64,000 nucleotides of DNA from an uncultured Syntrophomonadaceae bacterium (GTDB taxonomy: Bacteria > Bacillota > Dethiobacteria > DTU022). A program made the translations under genes and the position numbers. Below the pieces are notes generated by a model, which saw nothing but the letters and a program-made list of their open reading frames with translations, ran no database searches and had not been told where the DNA came from. Shown here piece by piece: positions 27,522-64,000 of this stretch (its first letter is position 1; the number at the start of each line of letters is the position of its first letter). The stretch covers positions 63,527 to 127,526 of the forward strand of contig CAYTXG010000003.1 in assembly GCA_964441025.1 (NCBI GenBank), read 5' to 3'.

Positions 27522-27622
27522 AAGATGGTGCCAAGGGGGGGCCGGGCGTACCCGGCTGAGATAGAACTGAGCTGTTCTGACCCTTCGAACCTGACCTGGG
27601 TAATGCCAGCGTAGGGAACATA
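27522..27622 (+). promoter_or_regulatory. TPP (thi-box) riboswitch
   Basis: GGGGGGCCGGGCGUACCCGGCUGAGA...GACCCUUCGAACCUGACCUGGGUAAUGCCAGCGUAGGGAA matches the THI element consensus, including CUGAGA and AAUGCCAGCGUAGGGAA. Confidence 0.9.
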
Positions 27623-27639
27623 CTTGCCGCCTTGATCAT

Positions 27640-27679
27640 AAAGGCTGCAGCTGCCGTTGGCTGCAGCCTTTGTCTTTGC
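27640..27679 (+). terminator. Riboswitch expression platform: intrinsic terminator
   Basis: AAAGGCUGCAGC-ugccguu-GGCUGCAGCCUUU followed by GUCUUUG, between the aptamer and the first transporter gene. Confidence 0.7.
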
Positions 27680-27723
27680 GGAAAACGAGCCGTTGTGATC
27701 ACCGCTGAAAGGGGGAAGCTGCC

Positions 27724-28513
27724 GTTGAAAAAATGGGGAAACAACAGAGAGCGCCTGCCGGCACTGCTGCTTTCTACAGCGCTGATCACTTTTTGGGAAC
27801 TGATCTGCCGGAAACTCAAACTTCCGGAATTCATCTTGCCCGCTCCATCACGCATCGTGCAGGCGCTCGTTGGAAATTTTCCCCTGTTGATGAGACATAC
27901 CTCCGTCACGCTCTATGCCGTTCTAGCCGGGCTGCTGCTGGCTGTAATCGTAGCCGTGGCCATGGCTGCAGCAATGGACCGCTGGAGACCGCTAAAAACA
28001 GCGCTGTACCCGCTGCTGGTTGTTTCGCAAGCCATCCCCATCTTTGCCCTGGCGCCGCTAGCCCTGATCTGGCTGGGCGTAGATCTGAAACCTAAAATTG
28101 CCGTGGTCGCCCTGGTCTGCTTCTTCCCCCTGGCGGTAAACATGGTTGAGGGGTTGGAACAGGTTGACCCCGCCGCTCTTGAACTGATGAAGGTGATGCA
28201 AGCCCGTCCCTTGTTTATCTTTAAGCAGGTCCGGCTGCCCTCGGTGCTGCCGCACTTCTTTGCAGGATTGAAAATATCGGCCACCTACAGCGTGATGGGT
28301 GCGATTATTGGAGAGTGGCTGGGCGGCAGCGCCGGCCTGGGTGTGTACATGACCCGGATGATGCATTCTTACAAAGCGGGCCACCTTTTTGCCGCCGTGA
28401 TCATCGCGGTGCTGCTCAGCCTTGCTCTTTTCAACATCAGCGAACTGCTGGCCTGGATCGTCATGCCCTGGAGCAGGAAAGAGCACAACAAAAATTATAT
28501 CGGGAGTGAGTAG
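27724..28513 (+). CDS. ABC transporter permease (thiamine-precursor ThiX/ThiY/ThiZ-type)
   Basis: TTG start with AAAGGGGGAAG RBS. (M)KKWGNNRERLPALLLSTALITFWE... and an ABC permease EAA loop. The track start at 27632 overlaps the riboswitch. Confidence 0.8.
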
Positions 28514-28515
28514 GT

Positions 28516-29538
28516 ATGTTCCGGACAATCAATGCAAGCAGAAGAAGACTTGTGTGGAAAACAGTGCTTCTCCTGATCCTTTTAACCGGCCTGGCTGCAG
28601 GAGCGGGATGCGCCGGGAGGGAAACACCGGCGCTCGACGAGGTTACCGTTCTCCTGGATTGGACTCCGAATACCAACTACAGCGGTCTTTTTGCAGCAAG
28701 GGATAAAGGATACTACCTGGAGGAAGGCCTTGAGGTAAAGATCGAGGAAGCGGGGGCCAATGTGCTGCCCCTTGTGGCTACAGATAAAGCGCAATTTGGG
28801 GTAAGTTACCAGGAACAGGTTACATTTGCCCGACTGAATGATAATATCCCCGTTGTTTCCATTGCTGCGGTAGTGCAGCACAACAGCTCCGGGTTTGCTT
28901 CGCTCAGGGAAAAAGGAATCAATTCTGTTGTCGATTTTGAAGGCAAAAGCTACGGCAGCTGGGGGACGGAAGTGGAGGAGGCTACCATTAAAGCGCTGAT
29001 GGATAAAGAGGGAGCCGATTTTGACAGCGTCAGCATCGTCACTATCGGGGAGACCGATCTTTTTGCAGTTATTGAAAAGCTGGCCGACTTTGCCTGGATC
29101 TATTACGGCTGGGACGGCATCGCCGCTGAACAGAAAGGGGCGGAGCTGGATTTCATTCCCCTGCGAGATCTGGACCCGTCTTTCGATTACTATACACCCG
29201 TCATCATCAGCAGCGAAACGCTCATCAATGAGCATCCCGACCTAGTTGAAAGATTTATGCGGGCAACAGCAAAAGGCTACCGCCTGGCTATTGACAGCCC
29301 CGAAGAGGCGGCGGAAATACTGCTGCGTAATGTCCCGGAACTTGACGGCGATCTGGTCAGAGCCAGCCAGGACTGGCTGAAAGATAAATACAGTGACGAT
29401 GCTGAAATATGGGGTCTGCAGAAGAAAGAGGTCTGGGAAAATTACAGCCGCTGGCTTCTTGAGCGCGGGCTTGTTGACAGGATGCTCGATGTGGACAAGG
29501 CTTTTACCAACAGGTTTATTCTGGGGAAAGCGGATTGA
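28516..29538 (+). CDS. NMT1/THI5-like substrate-binding lipoprotein (HMP/FAMP-binding, ThiY-like)
   Basis: Lipobox LAAGAGC. LDWTPNTNYSGLFAARDKGYY... NMT1/THI5 signature. Confidence 0.8.
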   Translation: MFRTINASRRRLVWKTVLLLILLTGLAAGAGCAGRETPALDEVTVLLDWTPNTNYSGLFAARDKGYYLEEGLEVKIEEAGANVLPLVATDKAQFGVSYQEQVTFARLNDNIPVVSIAAVVQHNSSGFASLREKGINSVVDFEGKSYGSWGTEVEEATIKALMDKEGADFDSVSIVTIGETDLFAVIEKLADFAWIYYGWDGIAAEQKGAELDFIPLRDLDPSFDYYTPVIISSETLINEHPDLVERFMRATAKGYRLAIDSPEEAAEILLRNVPELDGDLVRASQDWLKDKYSDDAEIWGLQKKEVWENYSRWLLERGLVDRMLDVDKAFTNRFILGKAD

Positions 29539-29705
29539 GCAGCCCCGTAAAATATGAATGGTAACCTTTAGACAGGTACCCTGCGCGCCCTTGCCTTTGG
29601 TGCAATTGAGGCCCACCCCCCTGCGCACGGTCCCCGGCAGGAGGGCGGGAAAGCATGAATAAATTCAAAGGGGCGGGCCAGTCCCCCCCCCGGAGGGTAT
29701 GTGTA

Positions 29706-30476
29706 ATGAAAACAGCAGGGCTGCAGCTGGAGGATGTCAGCTCAAGCTATCACTTTGGAAATGAAAGCCTGCCTGTGCTAAAAAACATCTCGATCACCCT
29801 GGGCGCGGGCGAGTTTGTTGCGCTGCTCGGCCCCAGCGGCTCCGGTAAAAGTACCCTGTTAAGGATCGCCGCCGGGCTGCTCAAACCCGACAGGGGCCGG
29901 GTGCTCCTTGAGGGTCGGGATATTACCGGGCATGCCGCCCGGGTCGGCTACATGCCGCAGCAGGACCTTTTATTTCCCTGGAAAACACTGCTCCAAAATG
30001 CCGCGCTGCCGCTGTTGAGCGCCGGCCTGTCCGCAGAGGAGGCCCGCGCCCGTGTCTCTGCACTGCTGCCCGTTTTCGGCCTTGACGGTTTTGCCTTATA
30101 CTACCCTGATCGCCTGTCGGGGGGTATGAGGCAGCGGGCAGCACTGCTGCGCACTATTCTAATGGAGGGCAGCCTGCTGCTCCTTGATGAGCCTTTTGCT
30201 GCGCTCGATGCTCTCACCCGGGAAAACCTGCAGGGGTGGCTGCTGCAAATTTTAAGCCGTTTTCAAAAAGCGGTTCTCTTTGTAACTCACAGCGTCGACG
30301 AGGCGATCTATCTGGCCGACCGTATCTATATGATCTCGGAGCGCCCGGGCCGGATCATCCTGGAGATGAGGGTTGATCTGCCCCGGCCCCGCTCCCGCAG
30401 CGTGGTCACAACACCCCTGTTCACCTCATACAGGCAGGCGCTGATGGAGGCGCTCGCAAAAACGCCAACGGCGTAA
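29706..30476 (+). CDS. ABC transporter ATP-binding protein of the thi transporter
   Basis: Walker A GPSGSGKST, signature LSGGMRQR, Walker B LLLDEPF. GGAGGG RBS before the internal ATG at 29706. Confidence 0.85.
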   Translation: MKTAGLQLEDVSSSYHFGNESLPVLKNISITLGAGEFVALLGPSGSGKSTLLRIAAGLLKPDRGRVLLEGRDITGHAARVGYMPQQDLLFPWKTLLQNAALPLLSAGLSAEEARARVSALLPVFGLDGFALYYPDRLSGGMRQRAALLRTILMEGSLLLLDEPFAALDALTRENLQGWLLQILSRFQKAVLFVTHSVDEAIYLADRIYMISERPGRIILEMRVDLPRPRSRSVVTTPLFTSYRQALMEALAKTPTA

Positions 30477-56473: not shown

Positions 56474-57727
56474 CTAAGTCTGCCGCCCCGCAGCCTTGCG
56501 GGCGTAACGGGTCAGATAGATATGGCGCATCCACAGGGCTTTTGCAGGAGCAATCGGCCTAGCGCCGCCGAACAGGGCAGTGCCGATAACCGCCCGGCAG
56601 CCTTTATCAAGAACCTGGACCGCCGCCGCGGCATCGCTTTTTGAGGGGCCGCAGCAGAGGACGCCGCTGCCTTCGATCATGACAGCGCTCCGGCCTCGCA
56701 TTTTTCCGGCGATTAATCCGGCGGCCGCAGGCAGGGGGATATCTGCTGCCGTCCGAACGCTGACACCAACAATTTGTGCAAAGTCATCGAGCAGCGGATA
56801 CACAGTTTGTCCCGTCTGCGAGAGGGCGAGAATGTCCGGCGAAAAAGCATGGGTAACAGCCCCAATGTCCTTGAACCTGCAGTAGAGCAGGCGGTGGATT
56901 TCACTCTCCGGCGGTGCGGCGGTTCTCCCCGGGGATCTTCCCAGGCTGATCCTGATCGAACCACTTTCGCTATCGGGAAAACATCCGTCGGGGCCGACCC
57001 CGGGATAGAGCACAAAGTGATCTCCCTTCCTCTCGCTGCGGTAAAAAAACCGCCTGGCAGATTCCCTCACCAGGCCCCCCTCCGGAGAGCACCCGGCCAG
57101 GTAGCATGCTCTCAGCCCATCCCAATCGCCCTCTTCTCGCCCGCTCAAATACAGGTAGCGGCGTATTATATAATCGGCACAGATCTGTTCCAGCCTGGCA
57201 GCCAGGCTGAAAGCCTCACCGCTGTCTGCCCCCAGGCAGAGCGCCCCGTGGTTGGCCATCAGCAAGGCCTTGCCCTCCGAACGATTGAGCGCAGCTACAA
57301 CGTTTCTTTTCAATTTACCTGTCCCGGGCAGCCCATAAGCGGCGCATGGGATCGTGGAGTCGCCTGCTATTGAAACTGCCCCGGCATCGGCCATCTCTAT
57401 ATCCCGGTGGAGAGCGCTGACCACGGAGGCAAATACCTGGTGGGTATGGACAATAAAGTTGATCCCGGGCCGCCGCCTGTAAATCGCGGCATGTATACCT
57501 TTTTCAGTGGAGGGCTCTATCCCGCCGTCGTAACTGCCGTCGGCAATATTAACCGTAACAATTTCCGCAGGGGTCAAAGCCTCATAGGGCCTGCCGCTGG
57601 GTGTGATCACAAAAAAGTCCCCATCAAGGCGGGCGCTCACATTGCCCCAGGTGCGGGAGATGAGCCCGGAGCCGATCAGCCGCCGTCCCGCCTGAATCAC
57701 ATCTTCCCTGGCCTGCTGCAATTTCAC
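56474..57727 (-). CDS. Tandem class II aldolase/adducin-domain protein (two MtnB/FucA-like domains)
   Basis: Domain 1: SRTWGNVSARL...EKGIHAAIYRRRPGINFIVHTHQ. Domain 2: ESEIHRLLYCRFKDIGAVTHAFSP. GTG start abutting the macro gene stop. Confidence 0.75.
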   Translation of the reverse strand: MKLQQAREDVIQAGRRLIGSGLISRTWGNVSARLDGDFFVITPSGRPYEALTPAEIVTVNIADGSYDGGIEPSTEKGIHAAIYRRRPGINFIVHTHQVFASVVSALHRDIEMADAGAVSIAGDSTIPCAAYGLPGTGKLKRNVVAALNRSEGKALLMANHGALCLGADSGEAFSLAARLEQICADYIIRRYLYLSGREEGDWDGLRACYLAGCSPEGGLVRESARRFFYRSERKGDHFVLYPGVGPDGCFPDSESGSIRISLGRSPGRTAAPPESEIHRLLYCRFKDIGAVTHAFSPDILALSQTGQTVYPLLDDFAQIVGVSVRTAADIPLPAAAGLIAGKMRGRSAVMIEGSGVLCCGPSKSDAAAAVQVLDKGCRAVIGTALFGGARPIAPAKALWMRHIYLTRYARKAAGRQT

Positions 57728-58267
57728 TTATTCCGCCCCGGGCAGCTTTTCAAGCGCTTCCCGGTGTACGGCCAGGTCACTTTCGCTGAACAGGACAAAG
57801 CGAACGGTCTGCACATGTTTAAGTAGAGGCGCAGTTTCAGCAATAGCGCTGCAGGCCACCGCTGCAGCCTCCTTCACGGGGTAACCAAATATACCGGTGG
57901 AAATAGCCGGGAAGCCCACCGATGACAGCTCATTCTCATCTGCCAGCCGCAGGGCGTTGCGGTAGCAGTTGGCCAGCAGTTTGGCTTCGGGCTTATCCCG
58001 GCCGTAAACAGGCCCCAGGCAGTGAATCACGTGGCTGTTGGGCAGCTTATGCCCGCCGCTGATCACAGCTTCGCCGGGCTTGATGGGAGCCAGCGGGCGG
58101 CATTCCGCCTCCAGTCCAGGCCCTGCAGCCCGGTGGATCGCCCCGGCCACACCGCCCCCGCTCCTCAGCCGGGCATTGGCGGCATTTACAATTGCATCAA
58201 GGTCGGGTTGCTCCACAATGTTGCCCCGGACGCACTCAATCACGACACCGGATACTCTCTTTTTCAT
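57728..58267 (-). CDS. Macro-domain protein (ADP-ribose / O-acetyl-ADP-ribose processing, YmdB-like)
   Basis: VNAANARLRSGGGVAGAIHRAAG...GFPAISTGIFGYP. AGGAG RBS before the internal ATG. The track's 260-aa form is over-extended. Confidence 0.75.
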   Translation of the reverse strand: MKKRVSGVVIECVRGNIVEQPDLDAIVNAANARLRSGGGVAGAIHRAAGPGLEAECRPLAPIKPGEAVISGGHKLPNSHVIHCLGPVYGRDKPEAKLLANCYRNALRLADENELSSVGFPAISTGIFGYPVKEAAAVACSAIAETAPLLKHVQTVRFVLFSESDLAVHREALEKLPGAE

Positions 58268-59015
58268 CTGCATCACTCCTGGTTTCAGGTGATATTGAAA
58301 CCGGCTCTCCGCCGATAAGACCGCATCCTTCAGGATCACAAAATATGTGTTCACGGCTTTTTTTTTCAAACGTTTCGCATTTGAGCAGCTCATAATAATC
58401 ATCCCACCGCCGGAAAGGAATTTCCGCGCAGGTGCAGGCCCGGGCGAGGCTGTCGCGGGCGTAGACACCATCGGCATGGGCTGCGGCAAAGCGATCATTG
58501 TCGCCGTCACCCACGTAGATTACCCTGTATCCTTCCTCCCGCAGCCCGATAACATGGGCCGCTTTGCAATTGCCGCAAATTGAGCAGCTCTCATGGGCAT
58601 AGGGCATCAGCACCCTGGCACGCCCCCGGACGAAAAGGGTCCGGTTGCGAAAAATACCGGCAATGTATTCGCTGCATCGGTGCGATTCCAGAACAGGCTC
58701 TATATAGATGCCGAAGCCATCGCTGGCAATGTAAACAGGACGTTTTCGGGATCGGGCAAAGATCAAGAACTCTTTAAAACCGGGCCGCAGGGCCGCTCTG
58801 GCTGCAGCGAATTCCAGCAACCCCTCCTGATGAGCCGGCAGATAAGCAGACATGCGCTCCAGCCACTCTTTCATTCCGAATTCGCCCCGCCTGTAAGCGG
58901 CGCTGCATTCCAGGTAGCGCTCTTTACCAAAATGGCGGGCCAGGTCCGAGGTAATGTCCCTATCCGTTACGGTACCGTCAAAATCGAGAACATAAACAAA
59001 TTTTAATTCCGCCAA
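58236..59015 (-). CDS. HAD-IB phosphatase, MtnX-like (2-hydroxy-3-keto-5-methylthiopentenyl-1-phosphate phosphatase family)
   Basis: LDFDGTVTDRD, Cys cluster CSICGNCK (compare MtnX CGCCKP), VGDGDND. AGGAGGG RBS with TTG start. Confidence 0.65.
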   Translation of the reverse strand: MAELKFVYVLDFDGTVTDRDITSDLARHFGKERYLECSAAYRRGEFGMKEWLERMSAYLPAHQEGLLEFAAARAALRPGFKEFLIFARSRKRPVYIASDGFGIYIEPVLESHRCSEYIAGIFRNRTLFVRGRARVLMPYAHESCSICGNCKAAHVIGLREEGYRVIYVGDGDNDRFAAAHADGVYARDSLARACTCAEIPFRRWDDYYELLKCETFEKKSREHIFCDPEGCGLIGGEPVSISPETRSDADEKESIRCRD

Positions 59016-59179: not shown

Positions 59180-60349
59180 ATGCTCAGATATCCCTTTACA
59201 TTCCCCAAGGTCGGCGGGCGACTGGTCAGGCGGGTAAACCGCTTCGTGGTGGAGGCCGATATTGACGGCCGGCGGGTGCAGGCTTACCTGGCCAATCCCG
59301 GACGGCTGTGGGAGTTGCTTGTACCGGGCACCGCCCTTCTGCTCAGCCCCTCTCTCTCCAGGGGCAGACTCCCATACACCGTGCTGGCCTGTGAAGCAAA
59401 AAACGGCTCTGTCCTGTTGCACACTCACCTGACCAACACCGTTGTCCGCAGCCTCATTGATGATCAAAGACTCCCCCCCTACAGGAATTACCGGATCATC
59501 AAATCGGAACCGGCAGTGGGCGAACACCGTTTTGATCTGCTTCTGGAACAGAGGCAAAGCGGCAAGCGCTATTACCTGGAGATCAAAAGCGTGACCCTTT
59601 TTGAAAGCCAAACAGCCATGTTCCCAGATGCCGTCACCGCAAGAGGCGCCGCCCATCTCCGCCTGCTAAAAGAGCTGACCGGACAAGGCCTTAATGCCGG
59701 TTGCATCTTTGTGATCATGAACCCGCAGGTAAAATATTTTCTTCCCGCCTATCATGTTGATTACATTTTTGCCCAAACCGTTCTCGATGTGAGAGATTCG
59801 GTGCAGCTGAATGCTGTCGCTCTCGGCTTTGACGCTGCCTTTACCGGGGTGACATCCGTCGAAAAGGCGGAAATCCCCTACAGCTTTCTGGAGAGAGAGC
59901 TGCATGACCGGGGAGCATACCTGCTGCTGCTGTACATGGATGGGCGAAAAGTGATCGCCTTGCCGGACGGAAAGGATCTGGAACTCCAGGAAGGCTGCTA
60001 TGTATATGCCGGCCGGGCGTCAGCAGATCTGATGAGCGAGATGGCCCGCCACAGACGAAAAAAGAAGAAGAAAAGGGCGCCCATCGATTACCTGACTGCT
60101 GCGGCCGATAGGATCACCCCTGTACCGATAATCACCGGCGAGAACCTGGAGCACCAGTTGGTTGCCGGTCTGGAGGAAATGGGCGGCAAAGCTGTGGAAT
60201 GGTCCGGCTCCCCGGGAGCCCAAAACAGCAGCAGGCTATTTTACTTTGCCGCGGATCCCCTGCACAACCGCGCCTTCATTGATCTGATCCTGCATTATCG
60301 AATCGGCAGGCCTGAGCAGAGACTAATAGCCCGAAAGAATGTGCCCTGA
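59180..60349 (+). CDS. sfsA: SfsA nuclease-family protein fused to a C-terminal DUF123 / GIY-YIG-like domain
   Basis: N-terminal ~235 aa: RVNRFVVEADIDGRRVQAYLANPGRL...IFAQT (SfsA). C-terminal ~150 aa: GCYVYAGRASADL...ARHRRKKKKKRAPIDYL (DUF123-like). Confidence 0.7.
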   Translation: MLRYPFTFPKVGGRLVRRVNRFVVEADIDGRRVQAYLANPGRLWELLVPGTALLLSPSLSRGRLPYTVLACEAKNGSVLLHTHLTNTVVRSLIDDQRLPPYRNYRIIKSEPAVGEHRFDLLLEQRQSGKRYYLEIKSVTLFESQTAMFPDAVTARGAAHLRLLKELTGQGLNAGCIFVIMNPQVKYFLPAYHVDYIFAQTVLDVRDSVQLNAVALGFDAAFTGVTSVEKAEIPYSFLERELHDRGAYLLLLYMDGRKVIALPDGKDLELQEGCYVYAGRASADLMSEMARHRRKKKKKRAPIDYLTAAADRITPVPIITGENLEHQLVAGLEEMGGKAVEWSGSPGAQNSSRLFYFAADPLHNRAFIDLILHYRIGRPEQRLIARKNVP

Positions 60350-60473
60350 AAATTGAACCGCCATCGCGGGCCGGGGTGGAACCCGGCCCCTACAAATTCA
60401 ACCGTTGTATCCCCGCGGACAGAATGTAATGCCGCCCTGCTCGCTTGACCGCTGCCGGCTGCACCTTCAGAAC

Positions 60474-60492
60474 GAGTCAAAGTCACCGTCCC
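60474..60492 (+). repeat. Dispersed repeat GAGTCAAAGTCACCGTCCC (copy 2)
   Basis: 19/19 identical to the reverse complement of 40207..40225. Confidence 0.5.
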
Positions 60493-60508: not shown

Positions 60509-61195
60509 TCAGCTATGTTCCTTCTCTCCAGCCAAAGTCACCGTCCCCGCGGCTGGTTTGAAGTAGAGGGCGCCGCTGGGGCAGGATTCAACGCAAAGGC
60601 CGCATTCATTGCAGCCGGAACGGGCCAGGCTGACATCCTGAAATGTAGTCACCACGCGCCTGATGCCGCGGCGGGAAAAACCAAGGGCGCCTATCTTGGC
60701 CACCTCGCGGCAGATCCAAACGCAGCGACCGCAGAGAAGGCAACGGCTGCGGTCAAACACAAAGGTTCCAGCGCTGTCATCAACATGGGAATCATATTCC
60801 AGCGGCGCCAGGCGATCCAGCTTCATCTTCAAACCTCTTGCCTTTGCAATTTGCAGCAGCGAGCAGCTCTTTCTTCTCGGACAGCTTCCGCATCCAAGGC
60901 GGTGATTGCTCAGAAGCAGCTCAAAGGCGCTTTTCACCAGGCGGTCCACCTGCGGGCTCCGCGTCCGCACGGAAAGGCCCTCTTTGACAGGCAGCGTGCA
61001 GGAGGTAACGGGCTCGTCGCGGCCTTCAACCTGGACATAGCAGAGGCGGCAACTGCCCGAAGGGTGATCCTTCCCTTTAATGGCACAGAGATTGGGAATA
61101 AAGATACCGTTGTCCAGCGCCACCCAGAGCAGCTTCGCTCCTTCGGGAGCGGTGATTTCGCGGCCGTCAATAATAATAGTGACCCCTTTGCTCAT
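60509..61195 (-). CDS. NuoG / HydA / FdhA N-terminal-fragment-like Fe-S protein ([2Fe-2S] + His-ligated [4Fe-4S] + 2x[4Fe-4S]) with no catalytic domain
   Basis: MSKGVTIIIDGREITAPEG...C..C..C. NHRLGCGSCPRRKSC. CLLCGRCVWIC and CNECGLCVESCP. Start ATG overlaps the NuoF-like stop (ATGA). Confidence 0.8.
   Translation of the reverse strand: MSKGVTIIIDGREITAPEGAKLLWVALDNGIFIPNLCAIKGKDHPSGSCRLCYVQVEGRDEPVTSCTLPVKEGLSVRTRSPQVDRLVKSAFELLLSNHRLGCGSCPRRKSCSLLQIAKARGLKMKLDRLAPLEYDSHVDDSAGTFVFDRSRCLLCGRCVWICREVAKIGALGFSRRGIRRVVTTFQDVSLARSGCNECGLCVESCPSGALYFKPAAGTVTLAGEKEHS
60533..60548 (+). repeat. Dispersed repeat CAAAGTCACCGTCCCC (copy 3), inside the 3' end of the Fe-S protein gene
   Basis: Shares the 15-mer CAAAGTCACCGTCCC with the copies at 40.2 kb and 60.47 kb. 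Confidence 0.5.
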
Positions 61196-63111
61196 GAGCC
61201 CTTCCTCTCTTTCTCCGCCAGCAGCCCGGGCGGCGACAGCTTGATCACGGCGTTGTAGTCGGGTGGGCAGGTCTTCAGGCAGTTGTCGCATTTGACGCAC
61301 TTGTCCTGGTCAATGGCTTTAAGGCCGTCATCGCGGGTAAAGACCGCCTCGGTGGGGCAACTGCCCACGCAGACGCTGCAAAGCTTGCTGCACATCTGCG
61401 GTTCAATATAGTAGACAATGAGCTCCTTGCACATGAGCGCCGGGCATCGTTTCTCCCTGATGTGGATCTCGTATTCATCCCGAAAGTAGCGCAGAGTGGT
61501 CAGGACCGGGTTGGGCGCCGTTGCACCCAGGTTGCAGAGAGAACCGGTGCGAACATCTTCGGCCAGCTCCTCCAGAATTTCCAGAGAGCCGGGCTTGCCC
61601 CGGCCTTCTGTAATGTCAGTTAAAATATCAAGCATCTGCTTTGTTCCCAGGCGGCAGAATGTGCACTTGCCACACGATTCCTTCTGGGTAAACTCCAGAA
61701 AATACCGGGCGATAGCCACCATGCAGTCATCCTCGTCGAGAACAACAAGTCCTCCCGAACCCATAATCGCCCCCGCCTCCTGCAACGAATCAAAGTCGAT
61801 GGGTATATCTAGAGCAGACTCGGGGAGGCAGCCCCCGGAAGGGCCGCCGATCTGGGCCGCTTTGAATTTTTTCTCATTGGCCAGCCCCTCACCAACATCG
61901 AAGATCAGCTGGCGGAGGGTTGTCCCCATGGGCACCTCCACCAGCCCGGTATGAGCCACCTTGCCCACCAGGGAGAAGACGGCGGTGCCGGGGCTGTCAT
62001 CGGTGCCGATGCTCCTGAACCAGTGAGCGCCCCGGTTGAGTATGGGCGGGACATAAGCAAAGGTCTTGACATTATTCAGCACCGTGGGCCGGCCGCGGAA
62101 GCCCGACTGGGCCAGGCGTGGCGGGCGTGTTGCCGGGATCCCCATTTTCCCCTCCATGGATCGGACCAGGGCGGATGATTCACCGCAGACAAAAGCCCCC
62201 GAACCCCGAAATATCTCCATCTCGCAGCTAAAAGAGCTGCCCAGGATATGTTCGCCCAGCAGCCCCCTTGCCCGCGCCTGCTCCAGAGCACGGCGGATCC
62301 GGCTTACGGCAAGGGGGTACTCGGCCCGGATATAAAAATAGCACTTCGCCGCACCCACGGTATAGGCGCAAAGAAGCATCCCCTCGATGACCTGGTGAGG
62401 GCAGGACTCAAGAATGCTGCGGTCCATGAAGGCCCCGGGATCACCCTCATCGCCATTGCAGATAACATACTTTTCACCGGGGCCGGCATTAACGGCAGCT
62501 TCCCATTTCAACCCCGTCGGGAAGCCGGCCCCGCCGCGCCCGCGGAGATGCGACTCCTTCACCGTCTCCAGAACCCGGGCCGGATCTGCCGCCAGAGCCG
62601 AAGCCAGGGCGCTGTACCCGCCCCGAGCGATATAATGATCGATATCCCCGGGATCAATAAAGCCGCAGTGCTCAAGAACTATTTTTTGCTCGTAAACGCC
62701 GCGGGGAAAATCGCTGAAAGTGGGAAAAACATCGTTCGCCTCCAGCGCCACCATAGCGAATTCATAGCAGGGATCATCATGGATTAAAAAATCTTCGACC
62801 AGCCGCCCGGCCAGGTCCTCGTCCGCATAACCATAACAGAGGGAGGGGAAACCGGGCTTGGAAATAATCACCAGCGGCTCGGCATAGCAGTGGCCCATGC
62901 AGCCGACCTCGATCACTTTAGCCGCAACGCCCTTTTCTTCAATAATCCCGGTAAAAGCATCTTTTACCTGCACAGCGCCGGCGGCGATGCCGCAGGTAGC
63001 CGTTCCCACGCGGATCACCGGCTCATCATAAAGGGCCTTTTTCGCGGCGGCGGCATCGCGCTCCAGCTTGCCGTATCTTTCGCGGATGGCGGAAAGCTGA
63101 TCCCCCGTCAT
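61192..63111 (-). CDS. NuoF-like NAD(H)-binding flavoprotein subunit (HydB/HndC type, with N-terminal thioredoxin-like [2Fe-2S] and C-terminal 2x[4Fe-4S])
   Basis: 639 aa. GRGGAGFPTGLKW (FMN site), an NADH-binding Gly motif (CNGDEGDPGAF), ESCGKCTFCR, and C-terminal ferredoxin motifs. Confidence 0.9.
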   Translation of the reverse strand: MTGDQLSAIRERYGKLERDAAAAKKALYDEPVIRVGTATCGIAAGAVQVKDAFTGIIEEKGVAAKVIEVGCMGHCYAEPLVIISKPGFPSLCYGYADEDLAGRLVEDFLIHDDPCYEFAMVALEANDVFPTFSDFPRGVYEQKIVLEHCGFIDPGDIDHYIARGGYSALASALAADPARVLETVKESHLRGRGGAGFPTGLKWEAAVNAGPGEKYVICNGDEGDPGAFMDRSILESCPHQVIEGMLLCAYTVGAAKCYFYIRAEYPLAVSRIRRALEQARARGLLGEHILGSSFSCEMEIFRGSGAFVCGESSALVRSMEGKMGIPATRPPRLAQSGFRGRPTVLNNVKTFAYVPPILNRGAHWFRSIGTDDSPGTAVFSLVGKVAHTGLVEVPMGTTLRQLIFDVGEGLANEKKFKAAQIGGPSGGCLPESALDIPIDFDSLQEAGAIMGSGGLVVLDEDDCMVAIARYFLEFTQKESCGKCTFCRLGTKQMLDILTDITEGRGKPGSLEILEELAEDVRTGSLCNLGATAPNPVLTTLRYFRDEYEIHIREKRCPALMCKELIVYYIEPQMCSKLCSVCVGSCPTEAVFTRDDGLKAIDQDKCVKCDNCLKTCPPDYNAVIKLSPPGLLAEKERKGS

Positions 63112-63647
63112 GAGGCTTCCTCCCCTTTTGTTTCCGCCGCCTTCGCTGCCGGCGGCAGGCTTTCCCCCGTTTCAAAGGAAAGCAGGATCCCATCCACCCT
63201 GGTCGGGGTAACCCGCCCTTCCACATCTTCATCGACAACGACAACGGGAGCCATGGTACAGCAGCCCACGCAGGCTACCCTCTCCAGGCTGAATTCGCGA
63301 TCCGGAGTGGTTTCTCCCTCGTTAATTTCAAGACGTCTTTCAAAGCACTCCATGGCAATGCGCCCGCCGACCATGTAACAGGCGGTACCCATGCAGACTT
63401 TCAGCTGATGTTTGCCCGGGGGATTCAGCCGGAATTGATTGTAAAATGTTGCGGGACCATATACTTCAACAGCCGGCATTTCCAGTGCTTCAGCAATCAG
63501 CTCCATGGCCAGGCCCGGCAGATAACCCAGCTCCTCCTGTACCCGTAGCAGTATGGGGATAAGATTTTCGCGTATTCTAACAGAACCCTCCAGCACTCCA
63601 GCCACGCCTGTCCGAATAAGCTCCTCTTCACCTTCGATTAGCGGCAA
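63108..63647 (-). CDS. NuoE-like thioredoxin-fold [2Fe-2S] subunit (HydC/HndA type)
   Basis: CMGTACYMVGG...ACVGCCTMAPVVVVD. TTG start with AAAAGGGGTG RBS. Overlaps the NuoF-like start (ATGA). Confidence 0.85.
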   Translation of the reverse strand: MPLIEGEEELIRTGVAGVLEGSVRIRENLIPILLRVQEELGYLPGLAMELIAEALEMPAVEVYGPATFYNQFRLNPPGKHQLKVCMGTACYMVGGRIAMECFERRLEINEGETTPDREFSLERVACVGCCTMAPVVVVDEDVEGRVTPTRVDGILLSFETGESLPPAAKAAETKGEEAS

Positions 63648-63763
63648 AAAAACACCCCTTTTCTACGATAGGCTGATAACGCCCCTTGAGGATAATATTA
63701 TTATAACGTATTTAAGGCGGAATGTGGAGACTTATCTCTATTGTTATAAATGTTTTGATTAAA

Positions 63764-64000
63764 TAAACACAGATCAGCTGTCTTCGCGGGCGATAATCCC
63801 GGCCAGGCTGCGGGCCTCCTCCCAGAGTTTGTCCTCCGGGATAGGGGCTTCCAGCATGATCCGGATCAACGGTTCTGTTCCGGAGGGACGGATAAGAATC
63901 CGGCTGTGCCGGCCCAGCCTGCCGCGCAGGGCCTCGACGGCTGAAGTTAAAGCCGGACTGTTTTCCCAGCATTTTTGCGAGGCAACAGGGTGGTTGTACA
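63764..64000 (-). CDS. glmM: Phosphoglucosamine mutase (GlmM), C-terminal ~78 codons; 5' end off the window
   Basis: Reverse translation ...ALRGRLGRHSRILIRPSGTEPLIRIMLEAPIPEDKLWEEARSLAGIIAREDS*. Confidence 0.6.

Follow-up and report, generated by a model that had tools for sequence, protein, structure and literature searches.

A predicted BfuABC-type module with a minimal third subunit, encoded in a self-contained operon without a linked catalytic gene

What does an electron-input module serve when no catalytic subunit is encoded beside it? The question is raised by three consecutive minus-strand genes towards the end of a 64,000-nucleotide stretch of DNA from an uncultured Syntrophomonadaceae bacterium (assembly GCA_964441025.1, contig CAYTXG010000003.1; the whole of this stretch is referred to below as the window). 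A sequence-only reading of the window had described the products as a NuoE-like [2Fe-2S] protein, a NuoF-like flavoprotein of HydB/HndC type and a 229-residue iron-sulfur module without a catalytic domain, and had taken them to form a free-standing electron-input module of NADH:ferredoxin type, possibly bifurcating, with a partner enzyme either encoded elsewhere or undescribed. Bfu enzymes, to which we relate the trio, are central to the energy conservation of anaerobes and their mechanism of bifurcation is still debated; metabolic reconstructions label genes of this kind 'NuoEFG' or 'HoxEFU-like' and then ignore them or assign them to complex I by assumption. The three genes, designated E, F and U, are the following.

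63108-63647, minus strand: bfuC, the nuoE-like gene (E), 179 amino acids, TTG start (open reading frame (ORF) list, PF01257)
61192-63111, minus strand: bfuB, the nuoF-like gene (F), 639 amino acids, ATG start (PF01512, PF10589, C-terminal 4Fe-4S dicluster)
60509-61195, minus strand: a minimal bfuA (U, of HoxU-like architecture), 228 amino acids (PF13510, PF10588, Fer4_Nqo3)

The answer towards which we lean, probable though some way from secure, is that the trio would be a free-standing BfuABC module whose third branch ends at exposed clusters and whose partner is encoded elsewhere. That the three genes belong together is plain from their arrangement. As first read, all three lie on the minus strand and both junctions (CTCATGAC and CTCATGAG) are 4-nt ATGA overlaps, each with a GGAGG-like ribosome-binding site ahead of it. 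For comparison we used a sample of 90 related loci from two phyla, examined to ±10 kb, with ligand counts taken from 75-89 sequences per subunit. The E-F-U order is present in every fetched locus with sufficient DNA, and the overlap recurs at 60 of 85 F-U junctions and at 53 of 83 E-F junctions, an arrangement that is non-random far beyond chance expectation. The median gaps to the neighbouring genes are 158 nt upstream and 122 nt downstream. With 4-nt overlaps inside, wide gaps outside and its own conserved promoter (described below), the operon is self-contained.

The assignment to the Bfu family rests chiefly on the flavoprotein. According to Schut et al. (2022; PMC9304861), this family has a conserved BfuBC core with flavin mononucleotide (FMN) and six Fe-S sites; clusters B3 and B4 are absent from non-bifurcating homologues, and B2, a [2Fe-2S] or Zn site, is formed by Cys438, Cys531, Cys536 and His525 (A. 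mobile numbering). Every Bfu-specific ligand and motif given by these authors is found in the BfuB and BfuC of the window. In BfuB, the N-terminal [2Fe-2S] site B5 has C40, C71 and C75 invariant in 83 of 83 sequences and C92 in 77, within a domain that aligns with NfnB and HydB. Also invariant in all 83 are the [4Fe-4S] ligands of B1 (C480, C483, C486 and C526), the Cys3His residues of the B2/Zn site (C463, H550, C556 and C561) and the ligands of the C-terminal 2x[4Fe-4S] pair B3/B4 (C574, C578, C581, C585, C605, C608, C611 and C615). The fifth position of B2 is Thr (in ITEG) in the window sequence, which matches about two-thirds of BfuBs, and the first B3/B4 motif is spaced C-x3-C in 83 of 83 sequences as against C-x2-C in two aligned solved NfnB subunits (9bov_B and 9n5u_B). 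The reference motifs of the Bfu NADH/FMN site are DEGDPGAFMDR and GAGAFVCGE, with Phe and not Tyr (Supplementary Fig. 10 of PMC9304861); here the former is kept in 82 of 83 sequences and the latter, as G(S/A)GAF(V/I)CGE, likewise in 82, the window having GSGAFVCGE.

Domain searches and alignments point the same way. The flavoprotein matches PF01512 (E 8.7e-46) and PF10589 (E 9.5e-32) above the Pfam cut-offs; its SLBB domain and C-terminal Fer4 dicluster score below them and are confirmed by full-length alignment to solved BfuBs, residues 33-615 aligning to 9bov_B and 9n5u_B (both NfnB), 7t2r_B (NiFe-HydB), 8oh5_B (StnC), and 8a6t_B and 7q4v_B (both HydB) with E values from 1e-184 to 1e-196. 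The top-scoring of these, at 642-656 bits, are the NfnABC/StnABC structures (9BOV, 9N5U and 8OH5). Since the N-terminal [2Fe-2S], the Cys3His site and the C-terminal 2x[4Fe-4S] distinguish BfuB from complex-I NuoF, the flavoprotein is, on its ligand set, assigned to the bifurcating BfuB type and not to the complex-I or Hox type. Its NuoE-like companion, a thioredoxin-like [2Fe-2S] subunit by its match to PF01257 (E 1e-44), has the four ligands of cluster C1 (C85, C90, C126 and C130) invariant in 75 of 75 sequences, and 7t2r_C, 9n5u_C and 8a6t_C as best solved relatives. The characterisation of both proteins in the sequence-only reading is thus borne out by Pfam and by the alignments to solved BfuB and BfuC. 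In sequence comparison the best solved relatives of all three subunits are bifurcating Bfu subunits, ahead of complex I and Hox, and the curated NCBIfam cut-offs that we applied to NuoE/F/G, HoxE/U and FeFe group A6 are reached by none of the scores: NuoE 138.3 bits (cut-off 141), NuoF 430.9 (558.65), NuoG 106.1 (470), HoxE 133.6 (224), HoxU 155.5 (333) and FeFe A6 181.9 (765).

It is the third subunit that sets the locus apart. The ORF as listed extends from 60509 to 61300, but homologues begin at an internal ATG at 61195 (MSKGVT...), which gives a protein of 228 residues; the iron-sulfur module described earlier therefore stands, and its length of 229 residues does not. Pfam finds PF13510, PF10588 and Fer4_Nqo3 in this protein and no domain beyond the second ferredoxin motif. 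It aligns to residues 3-204 of Thermotoga maritima HydA (E 7.5e-41), scoring 143 bits against HydA and 83 bits against HoxU (5xf9_B). In the nomenclature of PMC12318220 and PMC11406978, which describe a 'Y-shaped' N-terminal domain with clusters A1-A4, the ligands are predicted to be C37, C49, C52 and C66 for the [2Fe-2S] cluster A1, C152, C155, C158 and C205 for A2, H98, C102, C105 and C111 for the His-ligated [4Fe-4S] cluster A3, and C162, C195, C198 and C201 for A4. Each is the same in 88-89 of the 89 sequences, apart from residue 162, the fourth ligand of A4 (encoded at about 60710-60712), which is Cys in the clade of the window (21 sequences) and Asp in 68 of the 89 (alignments A1 and A4). 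In P0064, a single family member, two more of the A4 cysteines are lost.

An initial AlphaFold2 (AF2) model of the protein, built from 14 sequences, was unreliable (mean predicted confidence, pLDDT, 62.6) and was replaced by one from 121 sequences with a pLDDT of 91.3, in which the last ten residues are disordered. This model can be superposed on the first ~212 residues of 7t2r_A (TM-score, TMq, 0.86; root-mean-square deviation 1.6 Å) and also on 8a6t_A and 7q4w_A. Judged by its sequence, the 228-residue protein is exactly the N-terminal four-cluster domain of HydA, FdhA and NuoG, that is, a minimal BfuA.

The short form is widely distributed. Its members are stand-alone proteins of 212-234 residues, and in a scan restricted to one genome per species at least 587 genomes proved to carry such a gene; the best 80 are uncultured Bacillota with the labels Syntrophomonadaceae, Dethiobacteria, Thermincola, Desulfovirgula, Thermacetogeniaceae and Moorellales. 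The nearest species-level genomes are metagenome-assembled genomes labelled 'Syntrophomonadaceae', with 86% identity in the 228-residue protein. In an exhaustive profile search, the closest clusters at 50% identity also consist of short proteins, and in a rough neighbour-joining tree the window protein falls into a clade of 18 proteins, all short, from Bacillota and Dehalococcoidales, the next neighbour of which is an FdhA-type protein of 865 residues (P0132, 41% identity). The ratio of nonsynonymous to synonymous substitution rates (dN/dS) against five relatives is 0.04-0.16 across the three genes and 0.07-0.16 for the short gene. In the Dehalococcoidales branch the operon is likewise an orphan, with E of 179-185, F of 637-638 and U of 221-223 residues, in unrelated genomic contexts. 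Because length, E-F-U order and ligands are conserved, dN/dS is low and the clade is made up of short proteins only, we interpret the short form as an old and stable architecture across two phyla. The sequence-only reading had raised the possibility of a truncated hydA or fdhA pseudogene; what the comparison indicates is a conserved family and a short gene under purifying selection, not a pseudogene.

Some individual loci deserve mention. In Dehalococcoidales (Chloroflexota), one locus (L089:6526-9672) has acetyl-CoA synthase (CdhD-like) and pterin-binding genes upstream of the trio, and another (L090:6547-9666) has a Crp/Fnr-type regulator after it. A reduced locus (L001:9588-10660, GCA_900198705.1) has only the last ~138 flavoprotein residues and the short gene, preceded by a gene for an AMP-binding enzyme and with no NuoE-like gene; to judge from the sequence this is either a deletion or a mis-assembly.

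A full-length catalytic gene immediately downstream was the other possibility raised by the sequence-only reading, and none was detected in the window or within ±10 kb of the trio in the 90 loci. The Pfam scan of the ~50 larger ORFs of the window found no hydrogenase, formate dehydrogenase, nuo or other candidate partner gene, the products being concerned with housekeeping, sporulation/germination, transport and small-molecule metabolism only. Searches by tblastn with Fdh molybdopterin domains and HydA H-domains gave no match in the window or within ±10 kb in the 90 loci, and scans of the same DNA for H-cluster and NiFe motifs gave no signature. Three 'RxCGxC' matches were rejected as NiFe genes because none is paired with a corresponding NiFe motif at the C-terminus. 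One of them, which lies ~1.2 kb downstream of U and on the same strand as the genes, is similar to the Cys motif of a haloacid dehalogenase (HAD) phosphatase; the other two are on the opposite strand. An SfsA-DUF123 gene on the plus strand ends at 60349, so that the operon terminates in a convergent intergenic region with no catalytic gene attached, as had been read. Across the related loci, the genes within 60 nt downstream of the trio are heterogeneous and the recurrent neighbours are non-redox.

How might such a module work? We propose that the products of the three genes would assemble into a soluble heterotrimer with flavin and iron-sulfur cofactors that belongs to the BfuABC (HydABC-like) family. 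If it works as the solved Bfu enzymes do, NAD(H) would react at the FMN of BfuB, ferredoxin at the C-terminal BfuB clusters B3/B4, and a mid-potential third branch would run from B1 through A1 and A2 to surface-exposed A3 and/or A4. Docking at A3/A4 would fall to a partner with its gene elsewhere in the genome, either an enzyme or a diffusible redox protein, and the trio could act as a detachable bifurcating/confurcating 'plug' that connects the NADH and ferredoxin pools with this partner. A partner elsewhere is favoured because characterised Bfu enzymes show no turnover of NAD+ or ferredoxin alone, and because the A3/A4 ligands (residue 162 apart) are invariant. Docking of this kind has precedents: BfuABC docks as a module on separately folded enzymes, namely the SL subunits of NiFe-ABCSL and the WorSL nanowire; A4 feeds the H-cluster in FeFe enzymes, A3 takes electrons from the NiFe small subunit, and the A4 of WorABCSL touches the WorS nanowire (PMC12318220). 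In the window trio, both the A3 and the A4 ends are free of an attached catalytic module.

Taken together, the BfuB type of the flavoprotein, the conserved short family and the lack of a linked catalytic gene in the window and the 90 loci support the earlier idea of a free-standing electron-input module. Several points weigh against a partner encoded elsewhere. All characterised Bfu enzymes have their third-substrate module in the same operon, so that a partner in trans would be unprecedented. Clustering of the genes around the trio yields no co-localised candidate partner in any lineage. The C-terminal tail of the short protein is variable and predicted to be disordered, with no conserved adaptor like the WorA helix; and literature searches for a stand-alone BfuABC or a 'HydA lacking the H-cluster' found passing remarks in genome papers and no biochemistry or structure.

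Comparison with the described systems helps to place the trio. Schut et al. recognise four Bfu types: in Type 1 the catalytic domain is part of BfuA, in Types 2 and 3 extra subunits are encoded in the cluster, and in Type 4 extra subunits replace BfuA (PMC9304861). The 228-residue protein contains the [2Fe-2S] and [4Fe-4S] ferredoxin-type domains that define BfuA, in a fold supported by the AF2 model. By sequence, then, the locus qualifies as BfuBC plus a minimal BfuA and fits none of the four types, because this BfuA ends after A4 and neither the window nor the ±10 kb examined in each of the 90 loci yielded a catalytic gene. The same study reports 17-18 BfuB clades without assigned function (PMC9304861), so members of the trio may already sit in its tree.

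Among the nearest known systems are the Type 1 HydABC enzymes (T. maritima 7P5H, Thermoanaerobacter kivui 8A6T and Acetobacterium woodii 7Q4V), with an equal set of three subunits and identical predicted BfuB and BfuC cofactors. The short subunit can be aligned with the N-terminal domain (A1-A4) of HydA residue by residue, but at 228 against 571-645 residues it has no H-cluster domain: the motifs of that domain (TSCCPxW, MPCxxKxxE and others) were found neither by Pfam nor by tblastn or the motif scan. The Type 3 NiFe-HydABCSL of Acetomicrobium mobile (7T2R/7T30) gives the best structural match to the short subunit and the best solved BfuC match, and its BfuA, which has no catalytic site, uses A3 to connect separate catalytic subunits with the BC core; it differs in a C-terminal domain with a dead-end cluster A5 and in having SL in the operon, neither of which the window trio has. 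In the Type 2 tungsten aldehyde oxidoreductase WorABCSL (9MQX; PMC12318220), BfuABC is a 'plug' on the WorS nanowire via A4 and the C-terminal domain of BfuA is strongly reduced. WorA, however, lacks A3 and has a zinc finger and an adaptor helix, with worSL in the operon, whereas the window protein has A3, no conserved adaptor and no linked partner. NfnABC/StnABC is set apart by NfnA (963-1178 residues), which has a GltD-like domain for flavin adenine dinucleotide and NADPH and to which the short subunit aligns over ~residues 2-105 only; Pfam finds no pyridine-nucleotide oxidoreductase domain in the 228-residue protein.

Outside the Bfu family, HoxEFU of group 3d (Synechocystis; Hydrogenophilus thermoluteolus 5XF9) has the same architecture, with a HoxU of ~240 residues that carries one [2Fe-2S] and three [4Fe-4S] clusters, and the isolated subcomplex has ferredoxin:NAD(P)H oxidoreductase activity. 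It differs in that the HoxF/HydB of group 3d reportedly lacks two FeS clusters of BfuB (PMC11406978) and in that hoxYH follow in its operon; the Hox enzyme of R. eutropha has none of clusters B2-B5 and has motifs of GEPG..KDR- and AY-type. The NuoEFG N-module of complex I shares a homologous FMN/NADH site, clusters equivalent to N3, N1a and N1b and the E-F-G order, but its NuoF lacks B2-B5, its NuoG has a large C-terminal domain and its genes lie within a nuo operon. Separate operons of 'NuoEFG(I)' or of a 'NuoEF FP-fragment', with their role left open, have been described for 'Ca. Syntrophonatronum acetioxidans' (PMC6295475), deep-sea Chloroflexi (PMC5736913) and RBG-2 (PMC3971608), and we liken them to the trio by description.

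These comparisons bear on what else the trio could be. A variant that we consider possible, if on the improbable side, is a fifth Bfu type: a minimal free-floating bifurcating core whose third substrate would be either a freely diffusing redox carrier (a second ferredoxin, a flavodoxin, a rubredoxin or a thioredoxin-like protein) or a set of interchangeable enzymes that dock transiently at the exposed A3/A4. If true, it would provide many uncultured Bacillota and Dehalococcoidales with a three-way hub of NADH, ferredoxin and a third redox pool. We judge it unlikely that the trio is complete on its own, as a soluble, non-bifurcating ferredoxin:NAD+ (or NADH:ferredoxin/flavodoxin) oxidoreductase or 'diaphorase' in which the BfuA clusters serve as an electron reservoir or a second ferredoxin-docking site, like isolated cyanobacterial HoxEFU. 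Such an enzyme would accord with the self-contained operon and with the lack of a linked partner in 90 loci of two phyla; the short subunit, moreover, has the cluster set of HoxU, and the Joint Genome Institute (JGI) labels many members 'bidirectional [NiFe] hydrogenase diaphorase subunit'. On the other hand, Wor-Bfu and Nfn-Bfu reduce neither NAD+ nor ferredoxin without the other and the third substrate (PMC9304861), the fully conserved A3 His and three A4 Cys go beyond the apparent need of a passive reservoir, and the short protein is nearer to HydA/BfuA than to HoxU by the bit scores given above and falls below the curated HoxE and HoxU cut-offs.

That the trio is the NADH-input N-module, equivalent to NuoEFG, detached from an 11-subunit complex I or from a different membrane complex with its genes elsewhere seems to us very unlikely. 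The separate nuoEFG operons of PMC5736913, PMC6295475 and PMC3971608 were so interpreted or left open, and Schut et al. predict Nuo-Bfu complexes with BfuABC in place of NuoEFG. Yet the ABC genes of those predicted complexes sit within the nuo operon, and there are no nuo genes in the window or the 90 loci; nothing in the short subunit corresponds to the molybdopterin-like domain at the C-terminus of NuoG, the scores fall below the NuoF and NuoG curated cut-offs, and the flavoprotein has the extra Bfu-specific sites. Decay of a hydrogenase or formate dehydrogenase cluster, with the 228-residue gene as a remnant of hydA or fdhA, might be suspected because the nearest long relatives are of FdhA type (P0132) and HydA type and because L001 lacks E and most of F. 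We regard this explanation as refuted: a length of 212-234 residues is held across several hundred species, the 16 cluster ligands are conserved, dN/dS of the short gene is comparable to that of its two partner genes, translational coupling is kept, no trace of a Mo or H-cluster domain is found downstream, and the short forms make up a coherent clade.

The trio is a widespread and strongly conserved BfuABC with a bare cluster 'wire' and no linked partner, carried by syntrophic, acetogenic and dehalogenating lineages, and this implies either an unrecognised trans-acting partner or a new linkage of the NADH and ferredoxin pools. No natural Bfu complex would be smaller, and the trio is for this reason an appealing subject for studies of mechanism and structure.

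We turn to the surroundings of the operon, where the following features were recorded.

63783-63998, minus strand: 3' end of glmM (phosphoglucosamine mutase), the upstream neighbour, outside the module (tblastn)
63751-63769, minus strand: inverted repeat TGTTTATTTAATCAAAACA, between the glmM stop codon and the operon promoter, in 8 of 9 glmM-context relatives
63700-63728, minus strand: predicted sigma-70-like promoter, TCCACA-17 nt-TATAAT (consensus scan, 10 of 12 matches)
60368-60390, no strand assigned: GC-rich hairpin GGGCCGGG-TTCCAC-CCCGGCCC with an 8-bp stem, in the convergent intergenic region
59180-60349, plus strand: SfsA-DUF123 fusion gene, 389 amino acids, the downstream neighbour (Pfam)

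Upstream, the C-terminal 72 residues of GlmM match residues 376-447 of a 449-residue PGM/PMM protein in L002 with 68% identity (tblastn), and the synteny cdaA-ybbR-glmM-E-F-U is found in relatives L002-L004. The AT-rich promoter region that had been read after glmM is present, with a local GC content of 46% over 63500-63799. The predicted promoter lies ~50 nt 5' of the TTG start of the NuoE-like gene; both hexamers are kept in relatives, as are the TTG start and its GGGGTG ribosome-binding site, and promoter, TTG start and inverted repeat occur together in 8 of 9 glmM-context relatives (alignment A5). The window has a single copy of the inverted repeat, against 0 expected by chance, and the repeat is a candidate operator or UP-like element, that is, a putative regulator-binding site. 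An operator of the redox sensor Rex was sought upstream of the operon and not found, window matches being at chance level, and the inverted repeat was rejected as a Rex box.

At the 3' end, the hairpin retains its 8-bp stem in both the minimum-free-energy fold and the centroid fold. It is a possible bidirectional terminator, for which the evidence is weak because no T-run follows the stem and the terminator scan does not list it. An 18-nt direct repeat, AGYCAAAGTCACCGTCCC, at 60475-60492 and 60530-60547 (55-nt spacing), spans the stop codon of the 228-residue gene and is associated with a lineage-specific C-terminal tail of 15 residues, absent from close relatives; repeat and tail look like a small lineage-specific duplication. 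As for the convergent neighbour, the SfsA part of the fusion consists of an N-terminal OB domain and a nuclease-like domain, joined to the DUF123 domain. Relatives L001-L004 have a 388-residue SfsA-family protein at the equivalent convergent position, the DUF123 part being confirmed for the window protein alone.

The neighbour that is kept most widely beside the trio, in Cys-type and Asp-type clades alike, is a HAD 'Put_Phosphatase' with a CxxCGxCK motif, found in ~30 related loci (e.g. L040:13011-13739) and in the window at 58236-59015 on the minus strand; its linkage reflects either function or inherited gene order. In the Asp-type clade (L016-L088) an upstream block codes for radical S-adenosylmethionine (SAM), LplA-like lipoate ligase, dihydrolipoyl dehydrogenase (Lpd) and NAD-kinase-like proteins, and a downstream block for an AsnB-like protein, two HAD proteins and Sir2. 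This arrangement occurs in about a third of Asp-type loci (examples are L078:575-1693, L068:4886-6292, L045:5227-5982 and L061:2995-3969). The radical-SAM/LplA/Lpd/NAD-kinase-like neighbourhood was rejected as evidence for lipoamide as the third substrate, since it is found in the Asp-type clade only and is missing from that of the window; it also lies several hundred nt from the trio in L078, the sole locus checked. A further lead, Tsac_1705 as a ferredoxin:NAD+ oxidoreductase, was dropped when it pointed to a separately described class of ferredoxin:NADP+ oxidoreductases.

Beyond the phosphatase gene, a Macro-domain ORF as listed (57728-58510, minus strand, GTG start, 260 residues) overlaps it by 275 nt. 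The true start is probably internal because the domain begins at residue 108 and relatives encode 175 residues. The adjoining ORF (56474-57727, minus strand) codes for a 417-residue protein with two matched stretches of a class II aldolase/adducin domain. Far from the trio, a thiamine pyrophosphate (TPP) riboswitch at 27524-27634 on the plus strand (Rfam RF00059, 61.8 bits) lies directly 5' of a gene for an ATP-binding cassette (ABC) permease, and the genes at 27632-30476, coding for this permease, an NMT1/THI5-like binding protein and an ABC ATPase, probably constitute an operon for the uptake of a thiamine precursor.

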